Of a stretch of DNA of 64,000 nucleotides, positions 42,065-57,695 are shown piece by piece (position 1 is the first letter of the stretch; every line of letters starts with the position of its first letter). The stretch lies in contig JBCDJG010000008.1 of assembly GCA_038748065.1 (NCBI GenBank), forward strand, positions 35,548 to 99,547, read 5' to 3'. The notes under the pieces were generated by a model. That model saw nothing but the letters and a program-made list of their open reading frames with translations. It was not told the DNA's origin and made no database searches. The DNA is from Pseudomonadota bacterium (GTDB lineage Bacteria; Pseudomonadota; Gammaproteobacteria; Pseudomonadales; Halieaceae). The position numbers were made by a program, and so were the translations under genes.

Positions 42065-44445
42065 ACACTCGGCGCCAACCCTATTTACTGCTTTTCGGCC
42101 TGCTCGCAATGTGTGCCACACGGGCTCACGCCGAGCTGGAAGAAGTCATCGTCACAGCACAAAAACGCCAGCAGTCACTCGTTGACGTGCCCGCCTCCAT
42201 TACGGCCTTCAGCGCTCGGGACATTGAGGAGTCGCGCATGCAGCGTTTCAGTGACTATGCGCTGCGCTCTCCCAACGTGAGCTTCAGCAACCCCTCGGGT
42301 GACCGCTCCGACGTGCGTTTCTCCATCCGAGGTATCGGCCCAATCTCACGCGGCGGTGTGGGTAACTCGGTCGGCATCTACCTGGATGAATTCAATATCG
42401 CGCCCAACCTGCTGGCGCGTACCGTAGATACGCAGTTGCAGGAAGCCGAGCGCATCGAAGTCCTGCGCGGGCCCCAGGGCACCTTCTTTGGTCGCAACAC
42501 CGTTGGGGGCGCCGTCTCCATTACCAGCATCAAGCCGGATTTGGAGGCTGTCTCCGGCCACATTCAGGGTGACCTCTCGAGCTGGGATTCACTGGGCGCG
42601 CAGGCGGCGCTGAATCTACCTGTTAGTGAGGACATCGCCATCCGGCTTTTGGGCTACTACGACGAGAGCGACGGCTTCCTTGACCAGGCCGGTTCCCACT
42701 CGGAAGCCAACGCCAGCGAAAATAAAGGCATACGCGCCGCTCTCGCCTGGCAGCTCACGCCGACGTCCCGCCTGGATGTGTCTGTTTCACACTCTATACA
42801 GGAGCAAGAGCTGCCAAGCTTTCTGCCCACAGGCGATAACAGTGAATCCATCGCCCTGCTGGAAACGCTGGTGAGCGCCATTGCCGGCCAGGACCTGAAT
42901 ATCAGTGACATCGCCGGGCTGATCGGGGCAGACGAGCCGACGCCCAGCGGGGTCTATCCCGATAACACGGGTAAGATAAATACAGATATCGGCGCCCCCA
43001 GCGAGAACGAAACCACCATCATCACGGCACGCTGGCTGCACAGCTTCCAACAGGTGGATCTGACGCTCGTAGGTGGTTACATCGACAATCGCTACGACAT
43101 CGATGGCGAAGGTGACTTCTCCAACAATCCCTCATTTACCGTCGATCGCGAGATAGACTTCGACGCCTTCAGCCTGGAGGGCCGCTTGAACGGTGAAGTC
43201 GGCAAGCTAAGCTGGCTGGCGGGCCTTTACTACGGCGAGGACGAGGTCGAACAGCGGCAAAGCACCGATCATCTGACGACCGACCCCTTCGCGACTAACC
43301 CACTGCCCATAGGCATCAGCCCCTTCGACCTGGCCTTCCTCTGCATCGGCGGTGCATCCGGGGTGCCGGGCTGCCCCACCGAGGCCGCTCCCGGGTTCCA
43401 GCCCTACTTCATCGGTATCAACGACAGCTTCGGCCTGTGGGAAAACGTCCGCTTCGGCAGCGAAGTAGAATCGACCGCTCTGTTCTTCGATACCAGCTAT
43501 GCACTGAACGAGCGCTGGGAAATCAGTCTCGGCGGACGCTACACCCATGAAGACGTCAGTGGCTTTCGCATCGAAGGCCCGCTGGCGGACCCTTTCGCAC
43601 CCCGCGTTAGCAACCCGGGCTCCTCAGACAGCTTCAACGACTTCTCCCCGCGCTTCGCCGCCGTCTACCAGCTGACTGAAGAGATCAACCTGTACGGCAC
43701 GGTTGCGCGCGGCTTTCGCTCAGGCGGGCCTAACCCGGTCCCCGACGACCCGGATACGCCCGCCGATGAAGGTAACTTTGATCCGGAAACCATCACCAAT
43801 TACGAACTGGGACTGAAAGGGTCTCTGCTGGGCGGTAAGCTGCGCGGCGGCCTATCGATCTTCTACATGGATTGGCAGGATATTCAGGTGAGAACCCAGG
43901 ACCCGCTGACCCAGCGGCAGTTCATTCAAAACGCCTCCGAAGCCGAGAGTGCCGGAGCCGAGATTGAAGTGGCCTGGCTCGCGACCGAGGCTCTCCGTAT
44001 CAGCATGAGCTACGGCTATCTCAACGCCGAGTTTGGCGACTACGAAGACGCCGTAACCCTCGACGGCGAACGCATCGACGCCACGGGCAACACCCTACCC
44101 AACACGCCCGAGCATACGGCATCCCTGCTGGCGCGCTACCAGTTGCCCAACATCCAATCGGGCTCATCCACGGTCACGTCGCATCTACAAGCGGAGTACA
44201 GCTACATGGACGACCTGCAAACCGACATCGCCAACAACCCCGGTCGCCTGAACGAGGACTATACCCTGTTGAATCTGCGCTTTGGCGCAACGGCCGGTCG
44301 GTATAGCCTGCAGGTATTCGTCGAAAATGCCCTGGGCGAAGACTATCGCTTCGGCACAAACAGCCTCGAAACCTATCTCAGCGGGACGCAGTCCGCTGTC
44401 GGTGAAGGCCGGCGCTATGGCCTACGCCTGCGTGCGAGCTTCTGA
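42061..44445 (+). CDS. TonB-dependent outer membrane receptor
   Basis: Signal peptide, plug (LEEVIVTAQKRQQS) and C-terminal ..GLRLRASF. The GTG at 42061 overlaps the upstream stop (GTGA); an alternative GTG lies at 42043. Confidence 0.9.
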   Translation: MNTRRQPYLLLFGLLAMCATRAHAELEEVIVTAQKRQQSLVDVPASITAFSARDIEESRMQRFSDYALRSPNVSFSNPSGDRSDVRFSIRGIGPISRGGVGNSVGIYLDEFNIAPNLLARTVDTQLQEAERIEVLRGPQGTFFGRNTVGGAVSITSIKPDLEAVSGHIQGDLSSWDSLGAQAALNLPVSEDIAIRLLGYYDESDGFLDQAGSHSEANASENKGIRAALAWQLTPTSRLDVSVSHSIQEQELPSFLPTGDNSESIALLETLVSAIAGQDLNISDIAGLIGADEPTPSGVYPDNTGKINTDIGAPSENETTIITARWLHSFQQVDLTLVGGYIDNRYDIDGEGDFSNNPSFTVDREIDFDAFSLEGRLNGEVGKLSWLAGLYYGEDEVEQRQSTDHLTTDPFATNPLPIGISPFDLAFLCIGGASGVPGCPTEAAPGFQPYFIGINDSFGLWENVRFGSEVESTALFFDTSYALNERWEISLGGRYTHEDVSGFRIEGPLADPFAPRVSNPGSSDSFNDFSPRFAAVYQLTEEINLYGTVARGFRSGGPNPVPDDPDTPADEGNFDPETITNYELGLKGSLLGGKLRGGLSIFYMDWQDIQVRTQDPLTQRQFIQNASEAESAGAEIEVAWLATEALRISMSYGYLNAEFGDYEDAVTLDGERIDATGNTLPNTPEHTASLLARYQLPNIQSGSSTVTSHLQAEYSYMDDLQTDIANNPGRLNEDYTLLNLRFGATAGRYSLQVFVENALGEDYRFGTNSLETYLSGTQSAVGEGRRYGLRLRASF

Positions 44446-45132
44446 GTCGGCCAGCACGAAGCGCTGGTGGTTAAACGCCCAAATCACAATAAAGGCATAG
44501 GCGCTGACGAGGTGCCAGAGCGCATGCAGCGGTATGAAGGGATAGACGATCTTCTCATTGCTCGCCGAGGCCAGCAGCATCCCGAGAAAGAACAGCAAAA
44601 GCGCCAGTAGTAATAAAGGCCTCGCCTTGAGCGGAATGCGGCCCCAGTTGCGCGCGAACAAACCCACGTTCAACCAGGAAAAGGCAATCAGCCAGGTTTC
44701 ACCCGGGTAAAAGCCCCCCCAATCACCCAGCGGTATCGCCAGAAAGCGCGGGGTAGAAGGCAACCTGTCGTAGTAGTGCCAGCCCACCCCTATCAGCATA
44801 AGCACGGTTAACAGCGGCACCGCCCAGCGCCGCGTATCCCGACCATAAAAATCCCCAAGAATCGCAATGCCCATAGCCCAGGTCACCACGATATTGCTGC
44901 CCGTATCGAGGAAGCTCCAGAACCAGCGCTCGCCCCAGACCGGATTGGTTTCGCCAAAGCCGTGCAGGGTTACCGTAAAGATACCCGTTACCAGGATCAT
45001 CCAGTAGGCGAACACCCAGCGCGCAGGCTGCGGGTGCATGAGTTTGGTCAGCAGAAGCGGCAGGATGCCAGAAAATAGGGTCGCAAAGCCTGTGACTGTA
45101 TTCGCAAGGCCATAGTTGGGCAGGTTTTCCAT
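44422..45132 (-). CDS. Alkaline ceramidase-like (PF05875-type) 7-TM hydrolase
   Basis: 236 aa. The motifs NTVTG near the N-terminus, TLHGFGE, FLDTGSN and C-terminal PLHALWHLVSA parallel the Zn-binding His/Asp positions of ACER-type ceramidases, as far as I recall them. Confidence 0.5.
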   Translation of the reverse strand: MENLPNYGLANTVTGFATLFSGILPLLLTKLMHPQPARWVFAYWMILVTGIFTVTLHGFGETNPVWGERWFWSFLDTGSNIVVTWAMGIAILGDFYGRDTRRWAVPLLTVLMLIGVGWHYYDRLPSTPRFLAIPLGDWGGFYPGETWLIAFSWLNVGLFARNWGRIPLKARPLLLLALLLFFLGMLLASASNEKIVYPFIPLHALWHLVSAYAFIVIWAFNHQRFVLADSEARTQA

Positions 45133-45166: not shown

Positions 45167-46189
45167 CTAAGCGACCCCAGAGGCGGATTCAAACCAGCGC
45201 AGATAGGCGGTACGCGTGAGACCCTGTTGATTGTCTACTTCGCCCGCGTCGCTATTCGCTTCAGCGAAGCCTTTACCGAGCACCTGCTTCGGCGCCACCC
45301 CGAATTCAGCGCTGAAACCTCGTGAAAAGGAGCTGGGTTCGTCAAAGCCCCAAACGGCAGCAATTTCTCCGACCCGGGTATTACTGGGGTCGGCACGCCA
45401 AAGATCTGCATAGCAGCGCTCCATGCGCAGCCGAGAGATGTAACGCCGCACACCACCCAAGGGCTGGAAAAGCCGATAAACGGTACTGCGCGACACCTTG
45501 AAATGCCGACACAGTTCCTCCGTATCTACCGGCCCAATCAGCCGCGTGCTGAGATATTGCTGCATTGCGCCCAACGTCGGGCGCTGCTGTGCCTCAGCCC
45601 CGGGGCTCCACAATTTATCAAGGCTGGCGAGCAAGGCCTCACATAAGGTCTGGGCTTCTGCCAGTGTAACTCTGGGCAACTCCTCTTCGATCAGACTCCA
45701 GAGTGCAGCCATCGTTCGACCCACCGGTTCGCTGAGGGGCAGCGAGAGCACCGGGTTTACTCCCGATAGGTAGGCCCCCGCGGACAAATAGTGACGAGGA
45801 ATTACTATCGAACGCAGGGCCATGGCACTGGCTTCTGAATCAAAGGGCTGCGCCCAGTCTCGCAGGTAAAGGTGCCCGGGTACCAATCGCAGGCGCTGGT
45901 GATCCATAACCACCCGCTCTTCACCTTCGAGTTGCTGGTGCAACACCAAGAAGTCGGCGCGCCTCCCACGCAGGTGACGTGCCCCGCGAGTAAACCGCAT
46001 GGGGGAGAATCGGCTTTGATTAAACAACAGTTGATCAACCCGGTAGCCCTGCGAGCGAGCTAGAAGATCGGCCGGCGGCCCTAATGGCGCTACCTGATAG
46101 ATCGCCGCAGTGAGCTGCCGGAGCGCAGCCAGGCGTTCACCCTTCGGTAGCTGCCCGGAATCAAAAACATCGCTGGGGACCTGCTCCAT
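45167..46189 (-). CDS. AraC family transcriptional regulator
   Basis: 340 aa with a C-terminal HTH (ELCRHFKVSRSTVYRLF ... IAAVWGFDEPSSFSRGFSAEFGVAP). Confidence 0.85.
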   Translation of the reverse strand: MEQVPSDVFDSGQLPKGERLAALRQLTAAIYQVAPLGPPADLLARSQGYRVDQLLFNQSRFSPMRFTRGARHLRGRRADFLVLHQQLEGEERVVMDHQRLRLVPGHLYLRDWAQPFDSEASAMALRSIVIPRHYLSAGAYLSGVNPVLSLPLSEPVGRTMAALWSLIEEELPRVTLAEAQTLCEALLASLDKLWSPGAEAQQRPTLGAMQQYLSTRLIGPVDTEELCRHFKVSRSTVYRLFQPLGGVRRYISRLRMERCYADLWRADPSNTRVGEIAAVWGFDEPSSFSRGFSAEFGVAPKQVLGKGFAEANSDAGEVDNQQGLTRTAYLRWFESASGVA

Positions 46190-46215: not shown

Positions 46216-47409
46216 TTATCTACTCCAGCGGCGTCTGAGCGCGCGCAGACTCAGGCCGCAGAGGCCAGCGCTCAACACTAACATCGTCCACGCTTGGCCT
46301 AAAGGAATAGGTTCAATGCGGGCTTCGCCGGCTGAACCGGGTGGCGGGTCGATGTTGCGCACGAGGACTTCCGACATTTCCACCACGGTATAGACAATAT
46401 CGATGGGACTGCCATCGGCGAGCCTGCCGACAACCGTACCCCCATCCCCGCCCGGGTTAAGGGTATTGGTGAGCCCACTACCAACCACGGTCACAATTGA
46501 GCCCTCATCAAGGGACCACAACGCCCCCGGAGGAAACTCCCCACCGCTCACAGTAAATCCTGGGGCCTCACTGATTCGTAGGGCGACCGCGCCAACAGCC
46601 GGCTGGAAAATCCCACCACTGATCTCACCTTGACTCTCGTCGATGAAGAACAACGGAAAACGGCTAACGCCGCCACTCGCCGGTGACCCACCAATAAACG
46701 TACCGCCAGTGACCTGCACCGGACCATCAATGGCTACGGCTGTAGCACGGGTACCGTCGGCGTTCAGGCCACCACTGAAGGTGCCGCCGCTGATCTGCGT
46801 ACTGACAAGCGGACCACCCGCATCAAGCCCTACGGAACCGTCGGCAATACCACCGATGCCGTTACCGCCGCTAATTGAGCCCATCGTTACCAGGGTATTG
46901 CATCGGTCGGAGACAATGCCTGCACCCGCGCTGAAATCGATTTGCGCATTTCCCCCGACGATCACACCGCCATTGACCTCAAGCGAGCAGGCAGAAGCCA
47001 CGGGCCGTAGCCGAATCCCAACGCCACCAGTACCCAGGACATTGTTATTGTCACCACCTCGCACATTACCGTCGTTAACGATAACCGCAGTATCGACACC
47101 GCCGATACCCGCACCGGCCTCACCACCGCCAACACTATCATCACCGCCACGAATCGTGCCGCCATTGAGCAAAATGACACTATCGCCGCTGACACTCACC
47201 GCGGTGATCGCATTGGCCATGGCGGGGGCTTGCGCGGCACTCCCTGCCTGGAAATCAACCGTGGTGGCATTGGACACCAGCACATCAGCAAGTGGAGTCG
47301 TCACGGTATTGACCGCGCCGTTGTCAAACACCGTTTGCGCCTGTGCATTACTGACCCCAAGCAAACAAAGGGCGACGGCCAGCCTGCAGCAGAAAAAAGT
47401 GCGGTTCAC
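46216..47409 (-). CDS. Secreted glycine-rich beta-helix repeat protein with C-terminal IPLG / hydrophobic helix / Arg-rich sorting-type tag
   Basis: 397 aa with a signal peptide and repeated xxGGxhxGG coils (NGGTIRGGDD, NDGNVRGGDN, VNGGVIVGGN, ISGGTFSGG, VTGGTFIGG, ISGGIFQP, VSGGEFPPG). The tail is PIPLGQAWTMLVLSAGLCGLSLRALRRRWSR. The start overlaps the upstream stop by 4 nt. Confidence 0.7.
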   Translation of the reverse strand: MNRTFFCCRLAVALCLLGVSNAQAQTVFDNGAVNTVTTPLADVLVSNATTVDFQAGSAAQAPAMANAITAVSVSGDSVILLNGGTIRGGDDSVGGGEAGAGIGGVDTAVIVNDGNVRGGDNNNVLGTGGVGIRLRPVASACSLEVNGGVIVGGNAQIDFSAGAGIVSDRCNTLVTMGSISGGNGIGGIADGSVGLDAGGPLVSTQISGGTFSGGLNADGTRATAVAIDGPVQVTGGTFIGGSPASGGVSRFPLFFIDESQGEISGGIFQPAVGAVALRISEAPGFTVSGGEFPPGALWSLDEGSIVTVVGSGLTNTLNPGGDGGTVVGRLADGSPIDIVYTVVEMSEVLVRNIDPPPGSAGEARIEPIPLGQAWTMLVLSAGLCGLSLRALRRRWSR

Positions 47410-50400
47410 TGCCTCGAATCCCGTGTGCGAAGTGTATTAGCGCCAAGGCTCATCAAAAGCATAAGTAGCATCAACGTTACAGCTCCCCCAAGCGGAATGG
47501 ATTGCGGCAGGAAGAAGCGACTCAAATCCTCGTTCACGGTGAGGCGCAGCACGTCCTGCCCCCCTTCGTTAACCACCTCAAGCGACGCGGCATCAGGTGG
47601 CGCGCCGATGAAACGGAAGTTCATCCCACTGCCCGAAAGGCCACCGGGATCGGTGCGCAGCACGTCCAGGATCTGCCCCTCTGGGGCGGGATAATTGATC
47701 TGCACAATGACCTCGCCATTGATCGTCGCTGTATTGGCATCAATGGCCGCATAGCGCCCCGGCTGACCCAGGTTCTCGCGCGTGGCCCGCGTTGGTCCTT
47801 CGGCGACCAGCACAATGCGGCCATCCGGGCCAACCTGCAGGTCATCGGTACGAATATAGCTCGGATTCAGTGATGCCTCGGCATCCATCGGCAGGCTGGC
47901 GGGATTCTGCAGGCCAATCTCAAGCAGCGGCGTATCGAGGGCCGCGTTGGTGAGGCCCAGCCGGGCGGTGACCAGGCTATCGGCATTGGTGCCATCATCG
48001 GTATACAGCCCAACCACCACTGACTCGCTAACATCGGCGGTGGTGTCTTCAAGCAGCAGGCGGCCGTCGACTATTGCCACCGCATCATTGTCCTTGAGCT
48101 CCGCCTCGGCGATTTCAACACCCGCTGCGACAAGCGTGCTGCCTGTGATGCTGAGAAGCGCCGTCCCCCGGCCAATCGAAGTTTCCGAAACCTCAACCCG
48201 GCTTACTTTGATCTCATCAACTTCCATCTCGCTATCGGTAAAACTAGCGCGCCCAGTGCCGTCAGTCACACCGCCTTCGGTGTTATCGATTCGCATCAGA
48301 GACAAATCAACGGGCGCAAGAGCGCTGGATTCGATTCGCGAGCGGCTCACGGTCAGTTCCACGAGCGAAGGAAGGACTTGCGCACCTGCGGCTTGCGCTT
48401 CGCAGAGCCCAACCTGAAGTTGAACCGCACCTGAACCTAAGCCGTTGTTGAGAAACAGGGAGTCTTCGACTGTGACGTTGACCACGGCTGATGCCAATCC
48501 GTTCTCACCATCAACGTCCGCGTTAAACAGGTTAATCCCGTCTCCGAAGGTGACATGGCGCAGTTCGGCAGTCGCCGAGGCCTCCGCAGTAGTGTTGGAA
48601 CCAAATGCATCAGGGTCTCCAATTAGCAATTCAGTGTCGAGTGTTACACCAGTCAAACGGACAGTCGCTTGGCTCGATCCCCGCGAGTTCGCCGCGTTCA
48701 TGTTGGCGGACGCAATGACGATTTGGCCTCCGCCGCTGAGAACCGCGTCGTCGTCCACCACCAGCTCAGCAACGGCACTGGCAACCGCGCCCGTGTCAGC
48801 CTCCTCGATCAGAACATAGCCTACGCGAGTGAAATCTCCTGTATCGAACTCACCCCCGCTTACCGTCAGTTGGCCCTCAGCAGTCCCTGGGGAGTAGGCT
48901 GCTCCAATACTCGTGATCCCCGGGTTGGGAACCGGTGGAAGGGGTTCTGTTTCGGAGGAACCTGGAGAGCGGAACGTGGTATCGATCAAGGTGGCGCCGC
49001 CCACTGAGGCACCGCCCCCCGCATAACCTGGGCGCAAGACGCCGATCTGAAGGTTGGCTGTGGGCAGGATTTCAACGCCATCGGTCTGCAGACTGCCGCT
49101 GCCGCCATCCACGCCGATGTCAATTTGATAAGCGTTTAGCGGCTCAGGGGCCGACGCGCCACTCGCCTGGGCTTCGCCGCCATTGTTCACCAAAGCTGGC
49201 TCACCGCCAGAAGGTACTCGGTTACCACTCCAGTTGGCAGGGTTAAACCAGTCATCGCTACCACTATTGGTCCACTCGGCGGTTGATGGGGCACCGGTGA
49301 GTTCGAGAATGTACTTCTCCACGCCTGCATCGACTTCAAAACCCGTGGTCGCCGTGAACCCCGGGTTCAAGTTGCGTAACTCGACCGTGGCAAAATCCCC
49401 GCTCAAGCCATCAGCGCTGGCGCTGTTGATCAGCTCAAAACGTGCCGGGCCCTCGGGAATGAAGTCAAAGTCGACAACCAAGGTGCCATCCAGGGTGGCG
49501 CTGCCGACGTCGATGGCACCGTAGTCCCCACTGGCGTCAAACGATACGCCACCTCGCTTTGTCGAGCCCCCGTTGAGCACCACGGTGGCGCCGGGGCCGA
49601 GGTTCATCGTGTCGAACAGAGACAGCCAATGATCGTTGCGCATGAGCCCGCTGCCTACGCCGCTGCCGTTGCTAAAACCGATATTGATGGTACGGGCGCT
49701 CAGGCCCTCCGCCGTGAGAACTGTTCCGGTCGCATCGCCACTGCCGTTGCTGATGCCGATGTCGATCTGGTCAAAGCGGCCAAAAGAGGCCCGGCCTGAG
49801 CCGGATTGCCGGCTGAGATCAATCACCCCGACCGCAGAACCGCTACCATCGCTGACGCCAATCTGGGCGCTGCCGGTCGCGGCATCAGCACGTAGGAATG
49901 AGTCGCCTGTAAGCTCGCCATCGGCATGACCGGCGCCCGTGGCGACGCCGACGGACAGACTGCGGATATCAACGGAGGACTCCAGCTCGGATACGCGGGC
50001 GGTGGCCTGACCATCCCCACGGCTCACCCCCACCTCCAAGCGATCCAGCCTATCAATATCAAGTGTCGGCACCGCAACGGTCGCATCGGCCTGCCCGGTG
50101 CTCTCAGCGACCCCAAACTGTGCAATGGAAAACCTGGGCAACACTAGTCTCAAGTCTGCAGACTGAACGTTACCGTCGATCATAACGCGCCCGTCAGCAT
50201 CGCCAGCAGCGTTAGAGACCCCCACCCGAAGCGGCGTGCCAGCAACACCTAAATCCAGAATGCTCGCGTCTGTATCGAAGCGCAGCACACCCAGCGAAGC
50301 TGCGGTGCCAGAGTTGGTCACGCCAACGTTGACACCCTCTGTGGCAAGCAAGTCCCGGCTGAAGAAATCGGCAAACAGGACAGCTCCCTCGCCACCATCC

Positions 50401-50681
50401 ACCCCGACAAGTAGGTTGCGCACCGTGACATCAACGGCATTGGCACCAAAAACCGCCGTGCCGCCGTTATTAATCGTGGCGTCCATGCCGGCTGAAGGCA
50501 GCGCGTTAGGTGTCCAATTTAGTGGCGCGAACCAGTCGCCTTCGCCGGGGTTGTTCCATTCCTGCGCGCCGGCCGATGCCGCGGCCAGTGCAGTGAGCAG
50601 CAGTGTGCAAGCACGTTTTGTAATCAGTGTGCGTTTATTTGAGCTTAGTCCAAGTGAGAGAGCGTTCTGAAGAAGAGTCAC
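47406..50681 (-). CDS. Large secreted two-module beta-helix repeat protein with the same C-terminal IPLG-type tag
   Basis: 1091 aa with a GTG start and a signal peptide. The module head is duplicated (EWNNPGEGDWFAPLNWTPNALP.. and EWTNSGSDDWFNPANWSGNRVP..). About 8 periodic (V/I)G(V/I)SNGSGxAxG coils are present. The tail is SIPLGGAVTLMLLMLLMSLGANTLRTRDSRQ. Confidence 0.75.
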   Translation of the reverse strand: MTLLQNALSLGLSSNKRTLITKRACTLLLTALAAASAGAQEWNNPGEGDWFAPLNWTPNALPSAGMDATINNGGTAVFGANAVDVTVRNLLVGVDGGEGAVLFADFFSRDLLATEGVNVGVTNSGTAASLGVLRFDTDASILDLGVAGTPLRVGVSNAAGDADGRVMIDGNVQSADLRLVLPRFSIAQFGVAESTGQADATVAVPTLDIDRLDRLEVGVSRGDGQATARVSELESSVDIRSLSVGVATGAGHADGELTGDSFLRADAATGSAQIGVSDGSGSAVGVIDLSRQSGSGRASFGRFDQIDIGISNGSGDATGTVLTAEGLSARTINIGFSNGSGVGSGLMRNDHWLSLFDTMNLGPGATVVLNGGSTKRGGVSFDASGDYGAIDVGSATLDGTLVVDFDFIPEGPARFELINSASADGLSGDFATVELRNLNPGFTATTGFEVDAGVEKYILELTGAPSTAEWTNSGSDDWFNPANWSGNRVPSGGEPALVNNGGEAQASGASAPEPLNAYQIDIGVDGGSGSLQTDGVEILPTANLQIGVLRPGYAGGGASVGGATLIDTTFRSPGSSETEPLPPVPNPGITSIGAAYSPGTAEGQLTVSGGEFDTGDFTRVGYVLIEEADTGAVASAVAELVVDDDAVLSGGGQIVIASANMNAANSRGSSQATVRLTGVTLDTELLIGDPDAFGSNTTAEASATAELRHVTFGDGINLFNADVDGENGLASAVVNVTVEDSLFLNNGLGSGAVQLQVGLCEAQAAGAQVLPSLVELTVSRSRIESSALAPVDLSLMRIDNTEGGVTDGTGRASFTDSEMEVDEIKVSRVEVSETSIGRGTALLSITGSTLVAAGVEIAEAELKDNDAVAIVDGRLLLEDTTADVSESVVVGLYTDDGTNADSLVTARLGLTNAALDTPLLEIGLQNPASLPMDAEASLNPSYIRTDDLQVGPDGRIVLVAEGPTRATRENLGQPGRYAAIDANTATINGEVIVQINYPAPEGQILDVLRTDPGGLSGSGMNFRFIGAPPDAASLEVVNEGGQDVLRLTVNEDLSRFFLPQSIPLGGAVTLMLLMLLMSLGANTLRTRDSRQ

Positions 50682-50833: not shown

Positions 50834-51826
50834 CTACTGAGCGACGATCTCAACGCGGCGATTGAGTGCTCGCCCTTCTTCGCTGTCGTTAGACGCCAGG
50901 GGGGCAGCAGGACCGATGCCAACCGCTCTCAAACGATCTACAGCCACCGCGTGTTCGTTCACCAGCGCATCAACCACCGAGGCTGCGCGCTCGCCCGATA
51001 AGCCCAGGTTGTAGTCATAGGCACCCTGACTGTCGGTATGCCCAACCACCAGCACCTTCAGCTCCGGGCTGTTAACCAGGGCCTTGGCTATTTCTGATAC
51101 GGCGTCCGTCGAGTCGGGGGTGAGGGTGGAACTGTCGAACTCGAACTGTATGCCATAGAGCGATACCGACCCGGTTCTCTGTATCTCATCGAGCATCTCA
51201 TCTGCGGAGACGAAGGTCAGTGTCGGCTCGAAGTCTTCGATCTCCAGAACCTCAAGATGAATCATCGGCTGATTTCTAATCGCCGTCATTCCGGTCACTA
51301 TGTAGGTGCTCAGCATCGAGACATGGTAGAGGGAATCTCCCTTGATGATCGTGCCGTAAAGGTAGACGGGGTCACGATAGTCACTGGGCAGAATGTACAG
51401 CGACAGGCTATTTCTGAAGGTGACAGGAATACGGTTGCTTTCTTCCCAGATGACGCCACGGGCAAGCTTGGTGTGGCAGTCTTTGCGCGAGCAAGACCAG
51501 ATCGGCTCAAACTCACCAAACTCGGCAAAGGCCAGCTCATAGTTGCGCAGGATCTGCAGTGTTGTCTGGTCAGACTGCCCCATATAGATAATGCGCGTGC
51601 GCTTTCCTTCGGGCTGGGAAAGCTTGGGCTTGGCGCCCTCCATCTCAGTGACAAATAGCCCTTGGTCGAACTGTTTGTAGTCATAGCCAACAATGTAGGT
51701 ACCAGTCACGCGAGGCATCTCCGCGTAATCGCTACTACCGGGCATATCGGCATCCTGAGCAGTGGCATAGCCCGATACAACAAACGCCAGAACAAGCGTG
51801 GCTCTTACGGTCTGTATGATATTCAT
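50834..51826 (-). CDS. OmpA-family peptidoglycan-binding protein with N-terminal DUF4892-like domain
   Basis: 330 aa with a signal peptide and a C-terminal OmpA_C motif (LVVGHTDSQGAYDYNLGLSGERAASV ... NRRVEIV). Confidence 0.85.
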   Translation of the reverse strand: MNIIQTVRATLVLAFVVSGYATAQDADMPGSSDYAEMPRVTGTYIVGYDYKQFDQGLFVTEMEGAKPKLSQPEGKRTRIIYMGQSDQTTLQILRNYELAFAEFGEFEPIWSCSRKDCHTKLARGVIWEESNRIPVTFRNSLSLYILPSDYRDPVYLYGTIIKGDSLYHVSMLSTYIVTGMTAIRNQPMIHLEVLEIEDFEPTLTFVSADEMLDEIQRTGSVSLYGIQFEFDSSTLTPDSTDAVSEIAKALVNSPELKVLVVGHTDSQGAYDYNLGLSGERAASVVDALVNEHAVAVDRLRAVGIGPAAPLASNDSEEGRALNRRVEIVAQ

Positions 51827-51882: not shown

Positions 51883-54800
51883 CTAGTTTCTCGAAAGCAG
51901 CTGGTTTCTGAAGTTGGGGAAGTAGCGCTCCACCAATTCCAGATCCATATAGTTGGAGAGCCAGGTCTTTGTATTGGCGTCGTAGTACACGTAGTTCTTA
52001 TGTTCGAGCATCTTTTGCATGAAGAAATCGGCGTCAAGCCACCTGCCCCAGCGATCTGGGTCGATCAAGAGACTCTCCCGCCTCAAACTATTCACACCAT
52101 GATTCCCGGTGCTCATCTGGTCAATGATCCTCCCCAGTCCCAACAGGTCTTCGGTTGGAGAGCCAAAATCATGAATTCGATCCAGATCTAGCAGGCCCGC
52201 CTCCCAATACAGCCCCCTGCGAAAGAAATACACATTGCCCAAATGGACGTCCTCCCAGATCAGGTTTGCCTCCGCAAGCTTCTTGAATAACCTGAGCATG
52301 GCGTGCTGGTATGCACGAGGCAGTCTCTTCATCTGAGGATCCAGTCCGGCGATCTGAAATCCCCTCATCACGTAACCACTCGCGCTTGTTTCCGAGCGCA
52401 CGCGCCGATACTTGATGGTCCTGGCGCCATCAGGGAGTCGCTCCTGTAGAGCGAAGACCAGCTCATTTCCCTTAGTGGATCCAAACTTCCTGAGCGTTTG
52501 GCGACCTTTTCCCATAACAGCGAGGTGCGGGATATCTGCCGCGGCCAGCTTCTGGGAGGTTTCAATCGTCTGCTCGACATCCTCAATGGCCTGGTCGGGG
52601 CCCTTTCTGGCTTTATACAGTTTCGCAATGACATCGCGCCGCCCCTGAATCTCATGGACCACCGCGGCAGAACCTTCACCAAGACGAGCGCCAAGCGCCA
52701 GTGATTCTTGTTGACCGCCGGCGGCATTCCTGGCGTCGAGCTGTAGGCCGTCCCCGCTTTCTCCGGGGAACCACAAGGGGCGCTCTGTGGTGATGACTCT
52801 CTCATCATCCAATACCGTACCCATCTCCTTGAAGCGGCTAACCTCCTCATCCCACCACCTCGCGCTATCCAGGTTCCGAAGCTGAATTTCATCCTGCAGG
52901 GCCTGCCCCACTCGCTGCGCCCTCGTCAGCAGACCCTCGGGCAGAAAACGATTGAACGCTGCCTGATCTGCTTCATCGAAGATACTCATGACCGCGATCA
53001 AGCGATCGTGCTCCTCCCGAGTGAGCAGTCGAAATGCATCCAGCCCGCCCGCTTCCACAGTGTCCAGCAGTTGGTTGAGAACCCTGGCGTCATCAATGCT
53101 CTGAATCTGCGCGGGCGTCACTAGCGCCTGTGGAGGCACCGGGATGATGGGCGCAGCCCCGTCGCTGACGGCGGGAAACATGTCCTTTATCGGCGAGCTA
53201 AAATAGGTCAGATTCTTCGCGCTCAACCTGAAGGCCTGGCCAAAGGCGATCGCCTCCGCCGAGAAGCCGATGACACCGGCTGAGATTTCTGCGACCAGCA
53301 TCCAGCCGGGCTTCTGCTTGGCAACAGCATCGTCGAATCGTTCATGCGACAACACGCCCAGCGTGCCCCGCGCAAATCTCACCTCATCTCTCTGGGCGAT
53401 GTATTGACCCCACTTGCGATAGACAGAATCGCTTAGGGCCATACTCTCGCCGATCAGCGCCGCCGCGCGAAGCCCTACAACACCCGAGTTGGCGGCATAG
53501 GGTGTCGTTCTGATCACAAAGGCGACAGCGGGCCCAGAAGCGACAACGGAAAGCCCTGTAATCACAGCGATGACTACATCCTTCTCGGCGTCCTGGAGAT
53601 CATCTGCAAACTGCAGCTCGCTGAGCTTCTGCTCGATGCTGTTCATATGATTCCGGCCCAAATCTTCCGGTACCCACCAGGTGTCATTTCCGATTGTCTC
53701 GAGCCGTACAAGATCAGGAATGATTGGCTTTTTCAGGGGCTCGACATAGGAGCCGATGATCTCCATTAACTCGCGCAGGTCTTCAACATCCGTGCCGGCT
53801 AGCTTCTCTAGAGCATCCCTGACATGACTTTCCAGGGACCTGGCGGCGGCCTGCGCCAGCGTGCTTTTGTCCTGCTCGTATCCCCCAAGGCTTTGCTGTA
53901 CAAACACCTCGGCACTGGCTGCGCCCAGGGTGCTCGCTTCGACGCCGTCGATTTCGATCGGCAGTGAAAAGATGGCTGCGTCTCTGAATCTCAGCGCCGG
54001 GCCAACCGTCTCCTCCCACCATCGATTGGCGGCATCCGGATCTGAGAGCTCACGGCTCTGAGCTTCAAGACCTGCAAGTTGATCCTCCAGCTGATTCATC
54101 AACTCGTCGCGCAGCAAGAGCATCGACGCGTAATCACCCAGGGTCACCATCACGTCTGAATTATTCCAGCTACCGCCCGCATCAATCTCACCGACCAGGC
54201 GCGTGGTGGGCGTGCTCCGATCAACCCGAATCTGCGCCATCCGTCCTGCCTCGGAGAAGGCGTTCCACCAGGAATGATCGACGTCTTCAGGTGCCCTGGT
54301 CACTGCGTAGGCTCTAACGGGCGCAACGATAGGGGTGGACACAGGCAGTGAAACAAAAAGCTCGTATCCGGCGGGTAGATTCAGCGTTTTGTTCGTATCT
54401 GCATTCATTTTCCCAATTACAGCAGCGGGCGAGCGATAGACTTCGCTGCGGAACACAATCCCTTCTGCTCCAGCCACTCGCTTCAGATTCACGCTGGAGC
54501 TGCCCTCTACACTCAGTCGTTCGGCTTGCTCCGCAACCGGGTCCCAGCGGGCTATGCTGACGTCCAAAACGTCTTGATTGATGTCGTGGTCCAGTTCAAC
54601 CTCGAAGGCGAAGTGATCGCTTTCGAAGATCGTATTGAGTGGAATAAACGACCCATCAGGTAACGCGCGCACCACGCGCAAATCGGCATAGGCCGCCGGC
54701 CGATTCGGGGAACGGCCATATACCCAGGTAACGACTTGACCTGCCAGCTTGAACTCATACACGCCGGGCATGGCGCCCTTTCTTGGACTGGCTTCGATTT

Positions 54801-55833
54801 GTACGAGATCAAATTCATTTACCAGGTCAAATGCCGTCTCAACATCGACCCCTCTGGATCGCAGCTTTCCGAAATAGACGTCACTTAATGACTCTCCCCT
54901 CCGCTGCGGCAGCTTGAAAGGGTTTGCCGGTGTGAACGTCGTCAGGATCTCATAGTCCATCCAGCCCGCTTCGAACTCCAGTTCCGGATAACGTGTTAGC
55001 TTGGCGATGCCCTCGCCCATGACATAAAGGATTCTCGGGTCCCTATGCATATTGCTGCGAACTTCCTCGGGCAGGTTGATCACCGCCCCCAAGACCGAGA
55101 TGATCCTCGAGGTACGCCTTCCTTCCACGTCGGGGTAGACGGTGATAACAGGCTCCGAATCCGGCCATTCAATGGCAAGCGGTTCAAACCACGGCGTCAT
55201 ATCCAGCCGGGCCTGCTCGCCACTGACCGGGTCAATCTCGAGTATCTTTGCACTTTTAAGAAAATCATCGAGCTGAGACGGGGAACCGGGCCCGTCTTTG
55301 ACATCGAGCACACCATCCGCGAGCTCTGCCCAGGCTTCCCATGCAAACTCCCGCTCCTCTTGCTTGGCCACGTCCAGGAAGGTGAAAGCGTGAGCCGCAA
55401 GTTCCTCCCGTTGCTGAATGAGCTTGCTCGCGATGTCCCTATAACCCGGCGCTCCCGGCACCTCATCCCGCAGCAAAGCCAGGTAACGTCTGGCGGTGTC
55501 CAACTCAAGCTCCCAGTGCAGCTCGATGACCTCCATGGCAATCTCTTCCTGCTCGGGGGTGACCAGTTGTCCCGCCCCCGGTGCGTCATTTAAGGATGCC
55601 CTGATCGCTGCCAGCTTGCGGTTAGCCTGCTCAAGCGGCCTCATGACTTCCTGGCCTTTCAAGCGACCCTCGAAGTCCCGCTCCCAAATCGATTCCGACC
55701 TCTCCAGATAGGCATCGAACACGTCGACCAGAGTCGGCAGCAGCTTCAAGAGCTCGGCATTGGTAGACTGGGCTGCTGCGGCAGCCGCCAGCCAGAAAAG
55801 CGGTAGAACGAGAACGGCGCGGAAAACGCTCAC
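51883..55833 (-). CDS. 1316-aa envelope protein: signal peptide, unrecognised domain of about 730 aa, TM segments, C-terminal protein-kinase-like (APH/choline/Kdo-kinase type) domain
   Basis: GTG start with the signal MSVFRAVLVLPLFWLAAAAAAQS. The hydrophobic segments DVVIAVITGLSVVASGPAVAFVI and GWMLVAEISAGVIGFSAEAIAFG map to nt 53239-53580. The C-terminal motifs are LGEGSAAVV, VIAKLYK, WEDVHLGNVYF and LLDLDRI. Confidence 0.65.
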   Translation of the reverse strand: MSVFRAVLVLPLFWLAAAAAAQSTNAELLKLLPTLVDVFDAYLERSESIWERDFEGRLKGQEVMRPLEQANRKLAAIRASLNDAPGAGQLVTPEQEEIAMEVIELHWELELDTARRYLALLRDEVPGAPGYRDIASKLIQQREELAAHAFTFLDVAKQEEREFAWEAWAELADGVLDVKDGPGSPSQLDDFLKSAKILEIDPVSGEQARLDMTPWFEPLAIEWPDSEPVITVYPDVEGRRTSRIISVLGAVINLPEEVRSNMHRDPRILYVMGEGIAKLTRYPELEFEAGWMDYEILTTFTPANPFKLPQRRGESLSDVYFGKLRSRGVDVETAFDLVNEFDLVQIEASPRKGAMPGVYEFKLAGQVVTWVYGRSPNRPAAYADLRVVRALPDGSFIPLNTIFESDHFAFEVELDHDINQDVLDVSIARWDPVAEQAERLSVEGSSSVNLKRVAGAEGIVFRSEVYRSPAAVIGKMNADTNKTLNLPAGYELFVSLPVSTPIVAPVRAYAVTRAPEDVDHSWWNAFSEAGRMAQIRVDRSTPTTRLVGEIDAGGSWNNSDVMVTLGDYASMLLLRDELMNQLEDQLAGLEAQSRELSDPDAANRWWEETVGPALRFRDAAIFSLPIEIDGVEASTLGAASAEVFVQQSLGGYEQDKSTLAQAAARSLESHVRDALEKLAGTDVEDLRELMEIIGSYVEPLKKPIIPDLVRLETIGNDTWWVPEDLGRNHMNSIEQKLSELQFADDLQDAEKDVVIAVITGLSVVASGPAVAFVIRTTPYAANSGVVGLRAAALIGESMALSDSVYRKWGQYIAQRDEVRFARGTLGVLSHERFDDAVAKQKPGWMLVAEISAGVIGFSAEAIAFGQAFRLSAKNLTYFSSPIKDMFPAVSDGAAPIIPVPPQALVTPAQIQSIDDARVLNQLLDTVEAGGLDAFRLLTREEHDRLIAVMSIFDEADQAAFNRFLPEGLLTRAQRVGQALQDEIQLRNLDSARWWDEEVSRFKEMGTVLDDERVITTERPLWFPGESGDGLQLDARNAAGGQQESLALGARLGEGSAAVVHEIQGRRDVIAKLYKARKGPDQAIEDVEQTIETSQKLAAADIPHLAVMGKGRQTLRKFGSTKGNELVFALQERLPDGARTIKYRRVRSETSASGYVMRGFQIAGLDPQMKRLPRAYQHAMLRLFKKLAEANLIWEDVHLGNVYFFRRGLYWEAGLLDLDRIHDFGSPTEDLLGLGRIIDQMSTGNHGVNSLRRESLLIDPDRWGRWLDADFFMQKMLEHKNYVYYDANTKTWLSNYMDLELVERYFPNFRNQLLSRN

Positions 55834-55840
55834 AGCCCGT

Positions 55841-57508
55841 TCACTCGCTGTCTCCTGCGTTGCCTAGACCCCAGCGCTTCTCCAGGTCGTAGCGCCAGGC
55901 GATGTCAGACATCATTCTGTTTTTTTGTTCCGCACTCCTGGGACTGGACAGAATGTTATCTCTGAGGACCGCCGTCTCATCGATGAACGCACGCATTCGT
56001 TCGGCCATGACGCTCGCGGGGCTGCCAAAGGGGCCATCGGGCGCCTTCAGCATAGACACCGACAGATACACGTTTACCTCCAGTTGATCCCACCCGGAGG
56101 ACGGAACGTCTGCAGGGCTGCCCGCCGGATACATGAGCGTCATCTCTCGAATCAGCCTATCCGCGCCCTTCTCCTGGCTGCTGGCGCTCCCCCAGTACGC
56201 GGCGTTCATCAAGCCAACCTGGCATTCGGCCCAGGCCATACTGTCCCTACCGCCACTGGGAAAGCGCCACAGATAGTCTGACAACTCTTCAAGGAAAGTC
56301 GATTCGGCCTCGCTGGCTGCGTCAAACAGCTCGGCCACTAGCTGCTGAGTGTTCTCAGTGAGGTCCACGCGATCCAGCGAGCGAGGGTCCGGCCTTTCTG
56401 TTCCTACGCAATAGGCATTAGCCTGTGCAGGCACGTAAGCCAGCTTCGAATAAACGACCGGATCGGTCAGGTCGAGCGCCCGGAGTAGGTCAATTCTGAC
56501 ATCCGCCACGTCAGAAGGATCAACCGAGGATTGAGGTTTGCCCAAGTCAAACCGTCCTTCGGGCCTGCCTTCAGGATAACGCGCCACGGCCGCCTCGAGT
56601 TCGCTCAAGTAGCGCGCTATCGCTGACGGTTCGTCCGCGGCCACCAGCAATTGCCACGCCTTGCGCACATCGGGTGGATCGTAAAGATAGCCAGCTCCCG
56701 GCGCTGCGGGCGCGATGAGGGGGCTCAGTTTTGTAGCGTTCCGCGCTTTTCGGCTTCGTTCAGACTCTGCAGCCTGCTCGCCCAACCATTCAAGGTTTGC
56801 CTGCGTCCAGGCACGCAGCAAGGCCAGTGCTGCTCGATCGAAGCCTGTTTCAAGAATACGGTTGCGCCGATTCATGGCAACGGTCCAAACCAGCTGGTTC
56901 AGGGCAATATCAAAGTTCCCAAAGTGGCCGTATTCCGACCAGGTACCGCCATGGCCTTCAAAGGCCTGTAATTCAACATCATCGTGCCGCTGATTCAACA
57001 ACCATCGAAGCCCAGCTCCCGCATACAGCAGGCCGGCGGTTTCCGCATCACCGTCTAGGATGGCATTCATCACCATCTGAGCATGCCGTCGACCACCAAT
57101 GCGAACACCCTCTGGCGGCATACCGAACATGATCGCCAGGTCACGCAATGTGTCAGGCTCGTTGACAATAGTGGCGGGGAAGTGGATGCCCAGGCTGACC
57201 GGCGGGGAAACCTCCCCTGAGGCCAGGTCATAGAACACCAGCTTGTACTCCTTGATGCCTCTCCCGGGTCGATCTGGCCACTGCTCTACGATAACTGTTG
57301 CAGAGGGGCCCAGTGGATAGTCTTTAAAAGTCTGCGGGTCGATTTGTTCCTGCAGCTGCTTGACCTGTTCTGGTCCCGCGTATGGCAGGCTCAACAAATC
57401 TGCAAAAACCGGCGTCACAATGAAAGAAAAAAAACTCGCTAGCGCCGCACATGGCCGGCGTCTGGCGGGTCGGTAGTCCATTGAAAAGAAGAGAATTTTC
57501 TTCGCCAT
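55841..57508 (-). CDS. Secreted 555-aa protein of unknown function
   Basis: The ATG at 57508 (MAKKILFF..) is preceded by GGGGGAAAG and followed by a signal-like segment ALASFFSFIVTPVFA. Its stop lies 7 nt before the start of the 1316-aa gene. The ORF track starts at 57592. Confidence 0.65.
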   Translation of the reverse strand: MAKKILFFSMDYRPARRRPCAALASFFSFIVTPVFADLLSLPYAGPEQVKQLQEQIDPQTFKDYPLGPSATVIVEQWPDRPGRGIKEYKLVFYDLASGEVSPPVSLGIHFPATIVNEPDTLRDLAIMFGMPPEGVRIGGRRHAQMVMNAILDGDAETAGLLYAGAGLRWLLNQRHDDVELQAFEGHGGTWSEYGHFGNFDIALNQLVWTVAMNRRNRILETGFDRAALALLRAWTQANLEWLGEQAAESERSRKARNATKLSPLIAPAAPGAGYLYDPPDVRKAWQLLVAADEPSAIARYLSELEAAVARYPEGRPEGRFDLGKPQSSVDPSDVADVRIDLLRALDLTDPVVYSKLAYVPAQANAYCVGTERPDPRSLDRVDLTENTQQLVAELFDAASEAESTFLEELSDYLWRFPSGGRDSMAWAECQVGLMNAAYWGSASSQEKGADRLIREMTLMYPAGSPADVPSSGWDQLEVNVYLSVSMLKAPDGPFGSPASVMAERMRAFIDETAVLRDNILSSPRSAEQKNRMMSDIAWRYDLEKRWGLGNAGDSE

Positions 57509-57695
57509 CTTTCCCCCAAATCCCCCTGATCTGAGTTGCCGCAAATGGACGCTGTGCAACCAATATAGGTCATGTTGGATACAGCTGCACACGTGCCGCT
57601 AACTGGCAAGCTTTCCCCCACAGACGCCGCATGCCGTTGGCAATCCCTGTATCATCCGGCAAGCTACCGCCTGATCGACCAACGGAGAACGCCGC

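Follow-up and report, generated by a model that had tools for sequence, protein, structure and literature searches.

What role do the C-terminal tails of two adjacent, otherwise dissimilar secreted proteins play? This question is raised by a gene pair on a 64,000-nucleotide (nt) stretch of contig JBCDJG010000008.1 (positions 35,548 to 99,547; assembly GCA_038748065.1, family Halieaceae; hereafter the window), whose products of 1091 and 397 amino acids (aa) both end in the motif IPLG, a hydrophobic helix and an arginine-rich stretch. A preliminary description of the window had compared these tails with the PEP-CTERM, GlyGly-CTERM and especially the IPTL-CTERM classes of sorting signals. Our analysis suggests that the tail is most likely a lineage-specific, unmodelled variant of the IPTL-CTERM/PEP-CTERM signals and not a new kind of system, the strongest argument for a sorting-signal role being that recognised tags are swapped at the same position in relatives of the two proteins. 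The parts of the gene pair (ORF, open reading frame) are as follows.

47406..50681, minus strand: ORF of the 1091-aa secreted protein, with two tandem beta-helix modules and the sorting-type tail
50565..50681, minus strand: putative N-terminal signal-peptide region of the 1091-aa protein, aa 1-39, ending in LLLTALAAASAGA and followed by QEW
47487..47498, minus strand: IPLG motif of the 1091-aa protein, aa 1062-1065, with I1062 and P1063 invariant in the comparison with the ortholog
47430..47486, minus strand: hydrophobic tail helix of the 1091-aa protein, aa 1066-1084, GAVTLMLLMLLMSLGANTL (modelled helix 1066-1079)
47409..47429, minus strand: basic end of the 1091-aa protein, aa 1085-1091, RTRDSRQ
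46216..47409, minus strand: ORF of the 397-aa secreted Gly-rich repeat protein, with eight repeats of about 25 aa
47338..47409, minus strand: putative signal peptide of the 397-aa protein, aa 1-24, MNRTFFCCRLAVALCLLGVSNAQA
46297..46308, minus strand: IPLG motif of the 397-aa protein, aa 368-371
46246..46293, minus strand: hydrophobic tail helix of the 397-aa protein, aa 373-388, AWTMLVLSAGLCGLSL (low-confidence modelled helix 370-383)
46219..46245, minus strand: basic end of the 397-aa protein, aa 389-397, RALRRRWSR

Both ORFs, their 4-nt overlap (GTGA, in which the GTG start of the 397-aa ORF lies on the stop of the 1091-aa ORF) and the tails of motif, helix and Arg cluster were found in the sequence as they had been described. 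The 1091-aa protein ends in QSIPLGGAVTLMLLMLLMSLGANTLRTRDSRQ (nt 47409-47501) and the 397-aa protein in EPIPLGQAWTMLVLSAGLCGLSLRALRRRWSR; the latter tail, 31 aa long, occupies nt 46219-46311 and not the 33 codons (46219-46317) quoted for it before. In either protein IPLG is succeeded by some 16-19 hydrophobic residues and then by the Arg cluster, and the helix of the 1091-aa tail has the highest C-terminal hydrophobicity among the real genes of the window. One of the two tails, that of the 397-aa protein, has a Trp (IPLGQAW) whose register matches that of the Trp in IPTLxxW. The N-termini of both proteins resemble signal peptides when read from the sequence (LLGVSNAQA/Q and AAASAGA/QE, the slash marking the junction); the junction A[GH]AQ[ED]W is common to the 1091-aa protein and its ortholog P0004, and the N-terminus of the 397-aa protein can be aligned with that of its relative P0002. 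A putative signal peptide combined with a tripartite layout at the extreme C-terminus is also the layout of IPTL-CTERM proteins, as far as sequence inspection can tell, although the signature of the window tails is IPLG and not IPTL.

The common tail is a module and not the remnant of a duplication. The two proteins had been called paralogs, a designation that has to be abandoned, as BLASTP detected no similarity between their bodies (best E = 1.4). The tails have 8 of 32 residues in common and their coding DNA is only 40% identical, and it is because the bodies are unrelated and the tail DNA has diverged this far that paralogy does not account for the tail. The chance expectation for an identical tetrapeptide, in register beside the helix, is about 1e-4. 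Two proteins of the window are thus tagged, and a six-frame scan of the window revealed no third ORF with a tail of motif, helix and basic end.

Relatives of both bodies bear different tags at the position of the window tail. The 397-aa body has a single non-self relative among 5.8e9 proteins, P0002 (37% identity), whose corresponding end is a canonical PEP-CTERM. (P0002 continues for about 25 residues beyond its Arg cluster and contains a DevA-like ABC ATPase fragment (TIGR02982, aa 299-340); this C-terminal extension seems to stem from a fused gene call or from a frameshift within that metagenome contig.) For the 1091-aa protein, an exhaustive HMMER scan of 1.84e9 representatives returned only 170 relatives, and in a tail census that took in 153 sequences, 55 ended in a helix and a basic cluster, about 31 of these with PEP-CTERM tails of the VPEP type. 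The distant homolog P0008 ends in IPLPAGAWLLL...RRKR and matches VPLPA-CTERM at 45.6 bits. P0037, P0042 and P0095 are bona fide IPTL-CTERM proteins (32, 25.9 and 27.3 bits with TIGR04174, cutoff 20.5), and the two of them that were tested with PF18203 scored 39-41 bits, this family being also precomputed on P0037. Relatives from Planctomycetota, Verrucomicrobiota and other phyla, which are more distant, have PEP-CTERM ends in their genome loci.

The closest relatives of the 1091-aa protein keep the window-type layout, with variant motifs: IPIN in P0004 (46-49% identity; AIPINQPLALLL..RRG), IPVD in P0017 (55% over the C-terminal 240 aa; PIPVDHPLVLAAL..RR), VPVN in P0012 (40%; EVPVNPPLALAIL..RRR) and VPAL in P0014 (locus L002, from the Wenzhouxiangellaceae metagenome-assembled genome JANQPN01; AVPALQNTALLIM..RR). 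The tag therefore occurs in orthologs from other metagenomes and is not confined to the pair; having been called private, it deserves the word for its exact form IPLG.A.T, unmatched in the metagenome collection, but not for the IPIN, IPVD, VPVN and VPAL variants. Across the orthologs the [IV]P.. beside the helix is conserved and the sequence of the helix drifts. Homologous bodies can thus carry, interchangeably at this one position, either a recognised exosortase-type signal or the window-type tail, which argues that the tail does the job of a sorting signal. P0012 (VPVN) and a further IPIN-tailed relative, P0154, lie on contigs L043 and L045 of the same ENA sample (ERZ27277079), with GC contents of 0.625 and 0.606 and a tetranucleotide-frequency correlation of r 0.97; the two contigs may come from one genome, which hints at several substrates per genome. 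Two further searches, a word-indexed search with tail alignments (13 candidates, none scored) and a search of metagenome contigs with an alignment of P0003 (the window protein) and P0004, yielded no relatives.

Two other observations concern this family. On both L001 and L045 a second paralog follows the ortholog, and the contig end truncates it so that its tail is missing. Many members (P0005, P0010, P0013, P0016, P0026, P0059, P0078 and P0124) end, at the position of the sorting tail, in ...[FL]F.DGFE and acidic residues, in some cases with a GFESGD.S.WS continuation; P0045, P0121 and P0126 are listed alongside. Such DGFE ends might serve as another type of C-terminal signal, or they might be linkers at a domain boundary.

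How do the window tails compare with curated signal models? NCBIfam and Pfam scans were run on full proteins and on isolated tails, the cutoffs being 20.5 bits for TIGR04174, 20.8 for PF18203, 20.7 for PF07589 and 25.35 for TIGR03370. The native window tails gave no match at E<=10 with the IPTL-CTERM models (TIGR04174, PF18203) and none with TIGR02595 (PEP-CTERM), TIGR03370 (VPLPA-CTERM), GlyGly-CTERM, LPXTG or, two weak matches of the 397-aa tail apart, any other signal model; for GlyGly-CTERM there was no NCBIfam match at E<=10, and of the two tails one has GG and the other does not. The models performed as expected on positive controls: a synthetic IPTL consensus tail reached 47.6 bits with TIGR04174, P0008 passed VPLPA-CTERM and P0002 passed PEP-CTERM. 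Comparison with the IPTL-CTERM and PEP-CTERM models, proposed earlier as a check, hence does not make the tails members, since the native tails fail all cutoffs.

Below the cutoffs, the tail of the 397-aa protein resembles IPTL-like models most. It matches positions 35-63 of NF033207, 'midcut-by-XrtH', weakly (14 bits, E 0.035), and PF07589 at 11.4 bits (cutoff 20.7) through its helix and basic part. The IPTL consensus falls on the same region of 'midcut-by-XrtH' (positions 34-64, 37.8 bits), and the tails of L002 (17.1 bits) and P0017 (15.2 bits) match there as well. Replacement of IPLG by AAAA in the 397-aa tail abolished the match, so that helix and Arg cluster alone do not produce it and the motif is required. 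Exchange of LG for TL in register raised the same tail to 22.7 bits with TIGR04174, over the cutoff. The idea that IPLG is IPTLG minus its Thr was dropped, as insertion of Thr yielded 13.1 bits or no match; because insertion helps less, IPLG and IPTL appear to be related by in-register substitution. Two tails of the 1091-aa family are intermediates lying just under the TIGR04174 cutoff (P0012, 19.9 bits; P0090, 20.4 bits). On a profile of window-type tails, true IPTL tails reached 12-18 bits, against a median of 2.1 bits for PEP tails, none of which exceeded 11.1; each window-type tail, in turn, scored higher on a leave-one-out profile of the others (7.7-38.5 bits) than on IPTL or PEP profiles built here. 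On the strength of these sequence comparisons the tail is best described as a heterogeneous, sub-threshold IPTL-like flavour, with IPTL-CTERM as its nearest known class, which is the class that the preliminary description had singled out on architecture and to which the 'midcut-by-XrtH' match, the LG to TL exchange and the IPTL-tailed cousins all point.

No enzyme likely to act on such a tail was found nearby. No exosortase, rhomboid, sortase or CPBP-type protease was found in the 64-kb window by Pfam (all long ORFs) or NCBIfam (unassigned membrane proteins), in agreement with the preliminary description. None of the placed relatives L001, L002, L043, L044, L045 and L046 has an exosortase within 10 kb, and in the contexts of P0004, P0012, P0017, P0154, P0037 and L002 neither an exosortase nor another tagged ORF was seen as far as they extend; for the window protein P0003 and the cousin P0042 no such context is on record. 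To leave the processing enzyme wholly without a candidate was nonetheless an overstatement: the curated library ties IPTL-like motifs to exosortase H, and an XrtH-like exosortase encoded outside the window is probably the natural candidate.

In light of these results we lean, with some reserve, towards the view that the two products are Sec-exported, beta-helical, adhesin-like surface proteins with a lineage-specific exosortase-type tail variant, nearest to IPTL-CTERM, through which they are processed and displayed on the surface. The N-terminal signal peptide would direct Sec export over the inner membrane. The C-terminal helix would then serve as a transient membrane anchor, with the Arg cluster in the cytoplasm and the IP[LIV][GND] motif at the periplasmic face, where a polytopic membrane cysteine protease/transpeptidase of the exosortase family (an XrtH-like one is the likeliest, with its gene outside the window) could read the motif and remove the helix, so that the protein might be handed on for surface display.

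Several results weigh against this proposal: (i) neither window tail is accepted by any curated sorting-signal model, and the 1091-aa tail has no match at all and remains under the cutoff (18.2 bits with TIGR04174) even when IPLGG is changed to IPTLS; (ii) when both window tails are left out of the window-type profile they score 1.9 and 9.9 bits on it, a weak cohesion with the IP[IV][ND].PL tails; (iii) a search of the metagenome collection with the pattern IPLG[QG]A[WV]T[ML] gave 117 raw matches, none of which was confirmed as the exact IPLG form; (iv) the window holds only two substrates, and no exosortase lies in it or within 10 kb of any relative examined; (v) the link between IPTL-CTERM and XrtH is one that we presume from curated model names such as 'midcut-by-XrtH', no paper mentioning IPTL-CTERM, XrtH or exosortase H having been found in the library searched.

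The alternative that survives best, although we regard it as unlikely, is that the tail marks a separate sorting class, IP[LIV][GND]-CTERM, with a dedicated enzyme (either from a new exosortase subfamily or an intramembrane protease that is not an exosortase), its likeness to IPTL being generic. Such a class would be confined to a rare group of (probably marine) Gammaproteobacteria, its substrates being recognised for the first time in the two proteins and their orthologs, a corollary for which we see an equally small chance. It would explain why Pfam and NCBIfam miss the tail yet the IPTL, PEP and VPLPA models fire on its cousins, and why, in the leave-one-out comparison, each window-type tail is detected better by a profile of the others than by the IPTL and PEP profiles. 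The tails of P0004, P0012 and P0017 also share '.PL[AV]L', an additional feature which IPTL tails lack, and exosortase subfamilies are described as pairing with distinct signal flavours whose motif abuts the helix (Haft, bioRxiv 10.1101/2023.06.07.544157). Yet such a class would consist of six heterogeneous instances only, all but one on one body family; two in-register substitutions suffice to make one window tail pass as IPTL-CTERM, intermediates (P0012 and P0090) sit just below the cutoff, and no locus examined offers a candidate enzyme.

We give somewhat less credence still to a permanent, uncleaved C-terminal anchor that would tether both proteins to the inner membrane facing the periplasm, with IPLG as a helix-capping or turn motif. 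A helix with a positive-inside Arg cluster would be sufficient as a stop-transfer sequence, and the lack of a processing enzyme in the window and of an accepting signal model would fit such an anchor. Large, beta-helical, adhesin-like bodies make little sense when held in the periplasm, however, and homologous bodies bear recognised cleavable signals at exactly the same position. Nor would an anchor account for the conservation of [IV]P.. across orthologs while the helix drifts, and without selection two unrelated bodies would be unlikely to share the same IPLG in register. Improbable, too, and the weakest of the readings, is a decaying relic, that is, an IPTL- or PEP-CTERM signal that drifted in an exosortase-less lineage and now has no sorting function or an anchoring one only: sub-threshold scores, the rarity of the family and its heterogeneous motifs in close relatives (IPLG, IPIN, IPVD, VPVN, VPAL) would fit, but [IV]P, helix length and basic cluster are kept across orthologs of 40-55% identity and on the two unrelated window bodies, where a relic would be expected to show motif loss or early stops.

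The body of the 1091-aa protein is a further argument for display by a processed tail. An AlphaFold model of the 1091-aa protein, built with a six-sequence alignment, was all-beta except for one C-terminal helix (1066-1079) and had a mean predicted local distance difference test (pLDDT) score of 77.8. Its top PDB matches in Foldseek were all right-handed beta-helix passengers of autotransporters (Hbp, pertactin, EspC, IgA1 protease, Ag43 and Hap), with probabilities up to 0.97 and with low global TM-scores, as expected for long solenoids. Neither Pfam nor the model, which ends in the single helix, revealed an autotransporter barrel, and because its passenger-like beta-helix lacks such a C-terminal barrel the 1091-aa protein needs another route to the surface. 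The 397-aa protein (18% Gly) contains eight 'v.GG.i.GG' repeats of about 25 aa, and its single-sequence structure model was poor (pLDDT 42). Where both proteins had been described as beta-helical, the predicted fold is accordingly supported by the model for the 1091-aa protein and only plausible, from its repeats, for the 397-aa protein. PDB sequence searches with both bodies gave no meaningful match.

The 1091-aa protein is also an internal tandem of two beta-helix modules, each of which starts with a copy of the motif W.N.G.GDWF.P.NW..(V)P...D.A.(I)NNGG.A (aa 42-76 and aa 470-504). The same W.N.G.GDWF motif starts PEP-CTERM proteins in Planctomycetota, Verrucomicrobiota and other phyla.

Two neighbouring genes on the downstream side bear on regulation and on the search for an enzyme.

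45167..46189, minus strand: AraC-family regulator (AraC_binding_2 and HTH_18 by Pfam), 26 nt downstream of the 397-aa gene and on the same strand
44422-45132, minus strand: 236-aa polytopic membrane protein, two genes downstream, assigned to no family and with only a faint ceramidase-like match (E 0.014)

A full-length ortholog of the AraC-family regulator (55% identity; L045, 8687-9706) adjoins the ortholog of the 1091-aa gene in divergent orientation. Because this linkage is conserved in L045, the regulator is probably that of the locus and would control the 1091-aa and 397-aa genes as a two-gene operon. The 236-aa protein was considered as a hidden sorting enzyme and rejected, having no exosortase or rhomboid signal in its support; it has a C-terminal motif of the H..WH type and contains 'AIPLGDW'. 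On the upstream side, a gene for an OmpA-C-like peptidoglycan-binding protein (50834-51826) separates the tagged pair from two large genes on the same strand, 51883-55833 (minus, 1316 aa) and 55841-57592 (minus, 583 aa), neither of which has a Pfam or NCBIfam match. The 1316-aa product starts with a signal-like sequence and has two hydrophobic segments in its interior.

The biological stakes of the locus itself are modest, as they concern how an uncultured lineage may display two adhesin-like proteins on its surface. Sorting signals are called by narrow hidden Markov models, and tails that fall just below the cutoffs end up labelled 'hypothetical'; with the window-type tails as seeds, the IPTL-CTERM model might be broadened or a sister model set up beside it. 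The swapping of PEP-, VPLPA- and IPTL-CTERM and an unmodelled IP[LIV][GND] tail at one position, in a rare family of beta-helix adhesins, is, moreover, a natural experiment on the co-evolution of signal and sortase specificity.

Among known systems, GlyGly-CTERM/rhombosortase would call for a rhomboid-family gene, and no window ORF has a rhomboid domain. The passengers of type V autotransporters (pertactin, Hbp, Ag43) share with the 1091-aa protein the predicted right-handed beta-helix, but the latter has no beta-barrel translocator, ends in a single helix and Arg cluster, and shows no sequence similarity to them. VPLPA-CTERM (TIGR03370) likewise opens with [IV]PL and has a true member in the distant homolog P0008, whereas the window tails have neither PA nor the GAW/GWLLL continuation. 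PEP-CTERM/exosortase (XrtA/XrtB; TIGR02595, PF07589) follows the same tripartite logic on the same kind of cargo, and canonical VPEP tails predominate among the tailed relatives of both bodies; the window tails lack Pro-Glu-Pro, and no exopolysaccharide (EPS) or exosortase locus is nearby. From IPTL-CTERM (TIGR04174, PF18203) the window tails differ in their signature (IPLG, with IPIN, IPVD, VPVN and VPAL in relatives) and in native scores that are below curated cutoffs or amount to no match, but they share with it a place at the extreme C-terminus, a four-residue motif led by [IV]P, about 3-4 further residues, a helix and an Arg cluster, all on signal-peptide-bearing surface proteins, and cousins of the 1091-aa body carry a true IPTL-CTERM.

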